From a virus (lineage: Duplodnaviria; Heunggongvirae; Uroviricota; Caudoviricetes), in IMG/VR virus record IMGVR_UViG_3300044796_000394: a stretch of 64,000 nt of DNA; one strand, 5' to 3'. This document shows, in pieces, positions 15,083 through 15,497 of the stretch. Under the pieces are notes generated by a model, which did not search any database, was not told where the DNA came from, and saw only the letters and a list, made by a program, of their open reading frames with translations. Every line of letters starts with the position of its first letter. Positions within the stretch are counted from its first letter, which is position 1. A program made the translations under genes and the position numbers.

Positions 15083-15349
15083 TCAATTAAAAGGGTTAGC
15101 TTCTTGTGGGGTTTCAATTCGCATTTTCTTACCATCGAGATCGTATTTGATACTGACTTGCTGTACTGGCAAAGTAGTTTCTTCACCGTCCAACATGCTC
15201 AATTCGTGTTCGATCTTCAACCAGTGGCAGCGGTCGTTGGGTTTAACTTTTAATTCCAAGTATTCCCCTGCATGAACCACGGTTACGTTACAAACGCCTT
15301 CTTCGGCATTATACATCGCACAATTCTTACAGATTTTCTTTTTTAACAT
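15083..15349 (-). CDS. small zinc-finger protein
   Basis: CKNC...CNV...C-H Cys cluster. Start trimmed to MLKKK to avoid overlap. Confidence 0.45.
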   Translation of the reverse strand: MLKKKICKNCAMYNAEEGVCNVTVVHAGEYLELKVKPNDRCHWLKIEHELSMLDGEETTLPVQQVSIKYDLDGKKMRIETPQEANPFN

Positions 15350-15497
15350 TTTTCTTCTTCTTTTTATCATCGGACAAAATTACGGGCTTTGGATACATTC
15401 TGCCTACTGATCCGCCGATAGGTCTGGCGAAGTTGGCAATATCCCCTGTACTTGTCATAGTTTCTTCGATGTTTTTTAACCATTCTCTAAAAGTCAT
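15327..15497 (-). CDS. small protein (56 aa) with N-terminal MTFREWLKNIEE motif
   Basis: Below the 60-aa cutoff of the ORF track. TAATG-coupled to the upstream gene. Paralogous N-terminus to the 39689 ORF (MMNFKEWLKINE). Confidence 0.5.
   Translation of the reverse strand: MTFREWLKNIEETMTSTGDIANFARPIGGSVGRMYPKPVILSDDKKKKKNVKKENL

Follow-up and report, generated by a model that had tools for sequence, protein, structure and literature searches.

A capsid-targeting-like leader on two small lysine-tailed proteins of a T4-related huge phage, one of which resembles the N-terminus of the major capsid protein

In phage T4, the capsid targeting signals (CTSs) of the internal proteins (IPs) IPI, IPII and IPIII and of Alt are N-terminal propeptides of 10-20 residues that stand on otherwise unrelated proteins. 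Their residues Y4 and F7 are needed for targeting and I8 and E10 for processing, and the gp21 protease cleaves after L/I-x-E (PMC9026906). The ejection proteins of SPN3US and other phiKZ-like phages also have propeptides that direct inner-head proteins to the prohead and that a gp21-related protease cleaves off after x-x-Glu, but these are usually longer than 100 residues, lack a common short consensus and belong to another phage lineage (PMC5694885). Here we analyzed 64,000 nucleotides of Caudoviricetes DNA (IMG/VR record IMGVR_UViG_3300044796_000394; hereafter the window), in which two small genes encoding 56 and 44 residues begin with a CTS-like leader that is shared with many other genes; the 56-aa protein also appears to carry a copy of the segment of the major capsid protein (MCP) that follows its maturation cleavage site. 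Both small open reading frames (ORFs) belong to a T4-related huge phage of about 600 kb, and a protein identical to the 56-aa protein is present on a JGI contig of 614,480 bp. The two genes and the partner of the first are as follows.

15327-15497 (-): 56-aa gene; leader at residues 1-12 (MTFREWLKNIEE, nt 15497-15462), module resembling the N-arm of the capsid protein at residues 13-40 (TMTSTGDIANFARPIGGSVGRMYPKPVI, nt 15461-15378), acidic/poly-Lys tail at residues 41-56
15497-15970 (-): partner gene, 157 aa, upstream of the 56-aa gene and coupled to it; leader variant MSNLLVGFKLFVEKK and a Gly-rich C-terminus
39689-39823 (+): 44-aa gene; leader at residues 1-12 (MMNFKEWLKINE), middle MAGVATIINPKKDCKNPDFQVWGAVC, tail KKSKKK

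The two ORFs (MTFREWLKNIEETM... and MMNFKEWLKINEMAG...) exist as an earlier note on this DNA had described them, and the start codon of the 56-aa ORF does overlap the TAA of the 157-aa gene as TAATG (GGAATGTAATGACT), with GGAGG 8 nt 5' of the start. A codon-usage model trained on the long ORFs of the window gave positive log-odds for both (13.7 for the 56-aa ORF and 10.9 for the 44-aa ORF). Between the window and the orthologues at a related locus (L021), different codons were used at 10 of 24 conserved residues of the 56-aa ORF and at 11 of 24 of the 44-aa ORF, a pattern that indicates protein-level selection on both. Absence of conservation in relatives, which the earlier note had named as grounds for rejecting the genes, is not what we found: an exhaustive phmmer search of 1.84 billion representative proteins identified 36 relatives of the 56-aa ORF at E<=1e-3, nearly all of 45-100 aa and aligned end to end (about residues 1-54), and the 44-aa ORF has an orthologue at the same position (E=1.8e-12). 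Given the codon scores, synonymous changes, orthologues and kept gene order, both are genuine unannotated small genes.

A six-frame scan revealed that the motif at the start of the two small ORFs also begins many other ORFs. The leader comprises 10-12 residues with the form M-x(1-6)-F-[KR]-x-[WF]-[LIVM]-(x0-3)-E. In the window gene map of 93 genes and 20,204 residues, the strict motif F-[KR]-x-[WF]-[LIVM] occurs 11 times, always starting within residues 1-10 and never internally, whereas 5000 shuffles (N-termini shuffled singly or residues pooled) gave 0.18 occurrences on average and never more than 3. Glu follows the motif core at +1 to +4 in 11 of the 11 leaders (chance about 8e-8). The codons at the conserved positions vary (TTT/TTC, AAA/AAG/AGA and TTA/ATT/GTT/ATA/ATG), and thus the leader is conserved as a peptide and not as a DNA repeat; it is N-terminus-specific, and selection acts on the peptide sequence. 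AlphaFold predicted a helix at leader residues 3-9, with a confidence score (pLDDT) of 83 over the first ten residues. In LR756511, a 595-kb uncultured phage that gives the best match to the large terminase of the window (41.6%) and whose sequence was assembled from 13 pieces, a broad form of the motif is N-terminal 62 times, compared to 10.7 expected (P=7e-27). The other leader genes of the window, and two leader-like ones, are listed below.

13504-14313 (+): leader-like gene, 269 aa (MDSFSRFIISE...), preceded by the promoter-like box described below
16003-17367 (+): 454 aa (MKFKSWIAE...), weak Amidoligase_2 match
18461-19003 (-): 180 aa (MSFRLFIEAA...), weak GNAT match
19960-20856 (+): 298 aa (MDFKLWLEYS...)
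22449-23420 (-): 323 aa (GTG start; NFKLWLEAVD), coupled to and downstream of the 60-aa leader gene
23417-23599 (-): 60 aa (MKTFKTFREFVEAKK...)
23644-24027 (+): leader-like gene, 127 aa (MLTWQDFLKIRE...), preceded by the box
48022-48306 (+): 94 aa (MFKKFKEFVSLKE...)
61021-61548 (-): 175 aa (MKRFKMWIES...), NUDIX
61548-61778 (-): 76 aa (MLSSFRTWMEF...)

Like the T4 CTS, the leader has aromatic residues spaced i/i+3, followed by L/I/V and then Glu (compare IPIII, MKTYQEFIAE, and IPI, MKTFKEF...), it precedes basic or enzyme cargo, and it is found in a phage lineage with a T4-type head. It differs from the T4 CTS in scale, being present in about 12% of the window genes and at least 60 genes of LR756511 vs. 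a handful in T4, in the preference for Trp at the second aromatic position, in the Glu that often directly follows the hydrophobic residue, and in its tie to a promoter-like box close to the start codon; it is also known here from sequence alone. A position-specific scoring matrix made only from the 11 leaders of the window and scanned over 349 ORFs from 102 kb of T4 ranked gp61.1 first and IPI second, the latter being an experimentally established capsid-targeted internal protein.

On the strength of its sequence relatives, the 56-aa protein is a member of an undescribed family with about 70 cluster representatives. A profile search with the family retrieved 46 clusters on contigs of up to 614, 389 and 170 kb, all of them unannotated, and the 56-aa protein of the window matches the family hidden Markov model (HMM) at 1e-28. 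The family has a fixed design in which the leader is followed by [ST]T[SD]TGD[IV]AxFARP..G...RRMYP.P and then by an acidic patch and poly-Lys, and the leader is retained across about 45% identity. A word-indexed homology search with the 56-aa ORF returned only the ORF itself, and a scan of Pfam and PHROG gave no Pfam match and only phrog_8600 (E=0.16). A 2005-aa repeat protein (P0129) retrieved by the family search was rejected as a false positive.

The best match of the family HMM outside the family in the LR756511 proteome was the MCP, at residues 60-89 (E=3e-7), and the HMM matched 120 of the 120 huge-phage MCPs among the matches listed. The junctions are nearly identical: the MCPs read NQRL[MIF]NE/VSTDTGDIAQF and family members, for example, KKLEE/VSTDTGDIAVF (the slash marks the putative cleavage site here and below), and the shared junction aligns within 2 residues of the maturation site of T4 gp23. 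When the family consensus was searched by tblastn against 50,697 phage genomes, only the small ORF of LR756511 and genes annotated as major capsid or head genes were found, with E-values that are individually marginal. The 56-aa protein thus shares with the N-terminus of T4-type MCPs (Gp23, PF07068) about 30 residues across the cleavage junction and the N-arm, E/[VT]-[ST]T[SD]TGD[IV]AxF.R......RR.YP, which points to a copied MCP segment; it differs from them in lacking the capsid (HK97-like) fold and the 60-residue propeptide, in ending with poly-Lys and in giving no Pfam Gp23 match. In T4, residues 66-105 of gp23* are inside the head before expansion, where they probably lie against the scaffolding core, and they form the N-arm/N-fist afterwards; the capsid-length mutations A66D, A94V and G97S fall in this segment (PMC9546572). 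Another protein with the TTGDIA motif, Rm378p116 of Rhodothermus phage RM378, matched the family HMM at 6e-5. This 289-aa protein is encoded directly upstream of gp21, in the position of a prohead-core gene, and has LKQIEEMTTTGDIAGYDAPVG at residues 130-150, followed by a Lys/Glu-rich stretch; the capsid gene of RM378 was not found in the neighborhood of gp21 and Rm378p116.

T4 gp61.1, which belongs to phrog_1823 ("unknown function") and to no Pfam family, is a protein of 54 residues (MKTFKEFIKEDMVAGDSGGNPENISIGTTSGAVVNKGPEQIPKKKKEESKEKEE) whose best match in T4 besides itself is gp23. Residues 3-39 of gp61.1 align to residues 58-94 of gp23, spanning the E65 cleavage site (E=1.3e-5), and the Smith-Waterman score of 69, compared to 26+-4 for shuffled sequences, was reached in none of 5000 shuffles. 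The alignment pairs F4, F7, I8 and E10 of gp61.1 with F59, F62, L63 and E65 of gp23, which is the CTS pattern. Like the 56-aa protein, gp61.1 combines a CTS-like leader, here ending in I-K-E, with the post-cleavage segment of its own capsid protein and a Lys-rich tail in a product of similar length. Unlike members of a single family, however, the two have no direct homology detected outside the leader, the members of the huge-phage family do not match phrog_1823, and the copied capsid segments differ because the capsid proteins differ. By these comparisons, two distant lineages each have a protein of about 55 residues made of a leader, the post-cleavage segment of the phage's own capsid protein and a Lys-rich tail. 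The end of the gp23 propeptide of T4 (NC_000866), F59-x-x-F62-L63-x-E65, is patterned like the CTS of IPIII, Y4-x-x-F7-I8-x-E10, which suggests an origin of the CTS from this part of the capsid protein, or imitation of it. We found no mention of this resemblance in the open-access literature; older T4 papers could have noted it.

The relationship between the two small proteins is narrower than first described. The earlier note had counted 11 of 13 N-terminal residues as shared, while an ungapped alignment with an offset of 1 gives 7 identical and 1 conservative residue in 13, and the paralogy that it proposed does not extend over the whole genes, their similarity being confined to the leader (profile positions 1-14) and the poly-Lys tail. 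The profile of the 56-aa family aligned to the 44-aa ORF only at positions 1-14 (E=0.002, with high compositional bias), and the reverse search with the profile of the 44-aa family gave E=0.015 for the 56-aa ORF. By sequence, the two are best assigned to different small-protein families whose common parts are the genome-wide leader and a Lys-rich tail. The 44-aa family is represented at the following loci.

L021 1788-1940 (-): orthologue, 50 aa
LR756511 123745-123927 (-): relative, 60 aa

At L021, the orthologue lies in the same position as the 44-aa gene, convergent with a TnsA-like operon. The gene caller of the source assembly had not called it either, which indicates that this family is systematically missed by gene finders. 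Three further small proteins of LR756511, encoded at 589654-589875 (-), 589869-590045 (-) and 494977-495213 (-), have 58-78 residues, in which a variable middle part separates the leader from a poly-Lys tail, and several small-protein families seem to share this design.

We propose that both small proteins are basic internal peptides that are targeted to the prohead and trimmed by its protease, with a leader that works like the T4 CTS, and we put the probability of this reading at roughly 55%. The leader would form a short amphipathic helix by which the protein attaches to the scaffolding core while the prohead assembles. A gp21-type prohead protease would then cut after hydrophobic-x-Glu, at the predicted sites IEE/T in the 56-aa protein and INE/M in the 44-aa protein, whose leaders end in the gp21-type motifs I-E-E and I-N-E, respectively. 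The released peptides of 44 and 32 residues, each with a net charge of +6 and a poly-Lys tail, would stay with the packaged DNA and probably be ejected with it. Since the copied segment faces the scaffolding core in T4, the 56-aa protein would enter or bind the head as the N-terminus of a capsid subunit does, and would occupy those sites or compete for them. It would be made together with its leader-tagged partner of about 150 residues. Each of these steps, from prohead targeting and cleavage to DNA binding and ejection, is proposed by analogy with the T4 system. The suggestion in the earlier note that the two could be injected peptides or cargo was thus close to the best-supported reading, while the leader on a dozen genes and the copy of the capsid arm had escaped it.

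Several observations weigh against prohead targeting. No gp21-type protease or scaffold was found in the window or up to 10 kb beyond its ends. The P3 residue of the putative cleavage site is W/F and not L/I in 7 of the 11 window leaders, although it is L/I/V/M in 25 of the 36 members of the 56-aa family. The middle of the 44-aa protein family matches no head protein and shows no mimicry. Some leader-tagged enzymes, such as the CCA-adding enzyme of LR756511, could equally act in the cytoplasm. For gp61.1, the open-access literature yielded annotation mentions only and no report of it as a head protein, and gene 61.1 sits in the early/middle gene region of T4. Finally, phmmer detected no homologue of the late sigma factor gp55 in the window or in LR756511.

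The alternative that best withstands the evidence, though we consider it doubtful, is that the leader tags proteins for another destination or partner, such as an assembly hub, a chaperone or a regulatory protease, and that the 56-aa mimic stays in the cytoplasm, where competition with the capsid protein over the scaffold, protease or a chaperonin could tune capsid assembly or size, or hinder a co-infecting relative. Capsid mimicry and the capsid-length mutations in the copied segment fit this alternative as well, and both the position of T4 gene 61.1 among early/middle genes and the many enzymes among the tagged proteins speak for it. Yet the leader matches the experimentally mapped residues of the CTS and ends in a protease motif, and a poly-Lys tail suits association with DNA better than competition for a scaffold.

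A second alternative arises from the sequences upstream of the leader genes. A TA[AT]ATA box that resembles the T4 late promoter and ends 2-8 nt before the ATG precedes 14 of the 93 window genes, compared to about 0.3 expected, and it is found in 8 of the 11 strict leader genes and 6 of the 82 others (Fisher P=4e-6), two leader-like genes being among the 14. The three strict leader genes without a box are all operon-internal. The boxes nearest to the genes discussed here, and one hairpin, are the following.

15975-15980 (-): TAAATA, ending 4 nt before the ATG of the operon of the 157-aa and 56-aa genes
15991-15998 (+): TATAAATA, identical to the T4 late-promoter consensus; it ends 4 nt short of the ATG of the 454-aa leader gene, which is transcribed divergently
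39645-39663 (+): intrinsic-terminator-like hairpin, ending the gene upstream of the 44-aa gene
39678-39687 (+): CTAAATAAAG, 1 nt before the ATG of the 44-aa gene and conserved before the L021 orthologue
Box-bearing starts besides the two at 15971-16002: 13504, 14332, 19003(-), 19960, 23599(-), 23644, 28532(-), 39689, 45136(-), 48022, 57055(-), 61778(-)

Given the terminator-like hairpin, the 44-aa gene would have to be transcribed from a promoter of its own. As an exact 10-mer, CTAAATAAAG shows no enrichment (8 vs. 5.9 expected); what is enriched is only the shorter box where it stands at a set distance from the start codon. LR756511 has 59 box genes, compared to about 5 expected, about 26 of them starting with a leader in its broader form (odds ratio 22, P=2e-19), and the distance from box to ATG peaks sharply at 4-8 nt, with a lesser peak at 16-19 nt. 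Three head-module genes of LR756511 (encoding the MCP, a 616-aa protein and the large terminase) carry a comparable box farther upstream (25-38 nt), with a Shine-Dalgarno sequence after it. We read the box as a probable shared promoter type that would give near-leaderless mRNAs for the leader genes. The conserved N-terminus could then reflect an mRNA-level need of leaderless initiation, with no function for the peptide; the strong association of the leader with a box 4-8 nt before the ATG and the A/U-rich leader codons favor this explanation, which we nevertheless judge improbable. The three operon-internal leader genes of the window have Shine-Dalgarno sequences and no box, and one of the three starts with GTG; in LR756511, 36 of the 62 leader genes have no box and, conversely, 33 box genes have no leader. 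Synonymous variation of the codons leaves F, W/F, L/I/V and E unchanged, and the Trp codon TGG is not A/U-rich. Moreover, the leader persists across the divergence of the 56-aa family, and in T4 the CTS acts as a peptide and the IP genes have normal ribosome-binding sites.

That the 56-aa and 44-aa ORFs are simple paralogues from a recent duplication is very improbable. Their partly identical N-termini and Lys-rich tails are what such an origin would leave, but the likeness ends after about 14 residues, each ORF has its own orthologue in both LR756511 and L021, and at least 9 other, unrelated window genes start with the same leader. That the ORFs lack a function and are left over from a broken capsid gene or from recombination between leader-coding sequences is hardly credible: a capsid-gene-like stretch does lie inside the 56-aa ORF, and recombination at the IP locus of T-even phages has been proposed to be favored by leader-coding DNA that the genes have in common, but the 56-aa family is conserved over its full length and in its three-part design across its many cluster representatives, translational coupling and synteny are kept, and the synonymous changes indicate protein-level selection.

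The gene directly upstream of the 56-aa gene is a regular companion of the family. A partner of 135-157 residues with overlapping stop and start codons is present in LR756511 (partner 364024-364431, small gene 363842-364027) and at five further loci (L019-L023), and its leader variant across the loci is G-F-[KRHS]-x-F-[VFH]-E. A locus search of IMG/VR with the 157-aa partner gave one weak partial match. T4 gp61.2, which we considered as a homologue of the partner, is unrelated, and T4 thus has no homologue of the partner gene.

The proteins that carry the leader in the window range from 44 to 454 residues and include one NUDIX protein; the amidoligase-like and GNAT-like matches are below the curated cut-offs of Pfam. 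Sequence searches of the unannotated cargo proteins against PDB and NCBIfam returned nothing significant. In the 298-aa leader protein, VLVYHGTDPKN within residues 12-38 resembles the His motif of enzymes with the RNA 2'-phosphotransferase/ADP-ribosyltransferase fold, at E=0.21 only, and a single-sequence AlphaFold model of this protein was unusable (pLDDT 32). If this likeness is real, it would be a parallel to T4 Alt, a packaged ADP-ribosyltransferase. In LR756511, the leader-tagged proteins include a tRNA-ligase CPD domain, the head domain of a CCA-adding/poly(A)-polymerase, the HAD domain of "Swiss army knife" RNA-repair proteins and a C39/AvrRpt2-like cysteine protease; the genes concerned are at 411779-412324, 580680-, 582920-583582 and 429897-430484. 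To judge from these domain matches, the cargo (GNAT, NUDIX, amidoligase, C39 protease and RNA-repair domains) looks like a set of pre-packaged effectors, which is no proof that it is one.

The remaining genes place the window among T4-type phages. In LR756511, one module combines genes for a T4-type portal (gp20), a gp21 protease (3.7e-23) and a gp23 capsid protein with a scaffold-like gene, and a T4-type gp32 is encoded just outside the window. Other genes of the window are as follows.

17604-18461 (-), 35565-36734 (-), 42351-43547 (+), 46605-48014 (+): auxiliary genes, namely a family-9 glycosyltransferase, a sulfatase, an NAPRTase and a heptose kinase/adenylyltransferase
24069-28532 (-): ORF of 1487 aa with no Pfam or PHROG match and a start-proximal box, at the edge of the leader-gene cluster (13.5-24 kb)
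29424-30359 (+): compact Gp23-family protein (T4-type capsid fold), 311 aa, PF07068 at 1.5e-30
31215-32825 and 32877-34469 (+): two adjacent paralogous phrog_200 "lipoprotein"-like genes with N-terminal membrane anchors
49763-51427 (-): large terminase, T4-type

The 311-aa protein matched T4 gp23 at 2e-12 and the MCP of LR756511 at 7e-41 in phmmer searches, and its presence indicates that the phage has T4-type head proteins. It lacks the insertion domain and the TGDIA motif, and it may be a vertex-type or accessory paralogue instead of the main capsid protein. The full-size capsid gene of the window phage itself was not found: no copy from this phage is among the 120 huge-phage MCP matches listed, and flanking sequence from beyond the window ends carried no head genes.

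We tentatively extend the proposal, as a possibility well short of even odds, to T4-type phages from T4 (gp61.1) to those of 600 kb. Such phages may encode an unrecognized class of capsid-N-terminus mimics that track the capsid protein of their own phage and enter the prohead via the interface between subunit and scaffold, where poly-Lys would anchor or neutralize DNA, or capsid size would be tuned. The CTS would stem from the end of the capsid propeptide, and in huge phages it would have grown into a regulon of dozens of near-leaderless tagged enzymes, such as acetyltransferases, proteases and enzymes of RNA repair, which would be delivered ready-made along with the genome.

Should the leader prove to be a capsid-targeting signal, sequence alone would reveal which genes of huge phages encode proteins delivered with the DNA, and the "first-strike" repertoire of uncultured phages could then be predicted. 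The start-codon-adjacent box suggests that these phages have a distinct expression class, possibly a leaderless one. A role as a capsid-N-terminus mimic would give the T4 orphan gene 61.1 a concrete, testable function, and the mimicry suggests an origin for the T4 CTS, which is already a tool for packaging foreign proteins.

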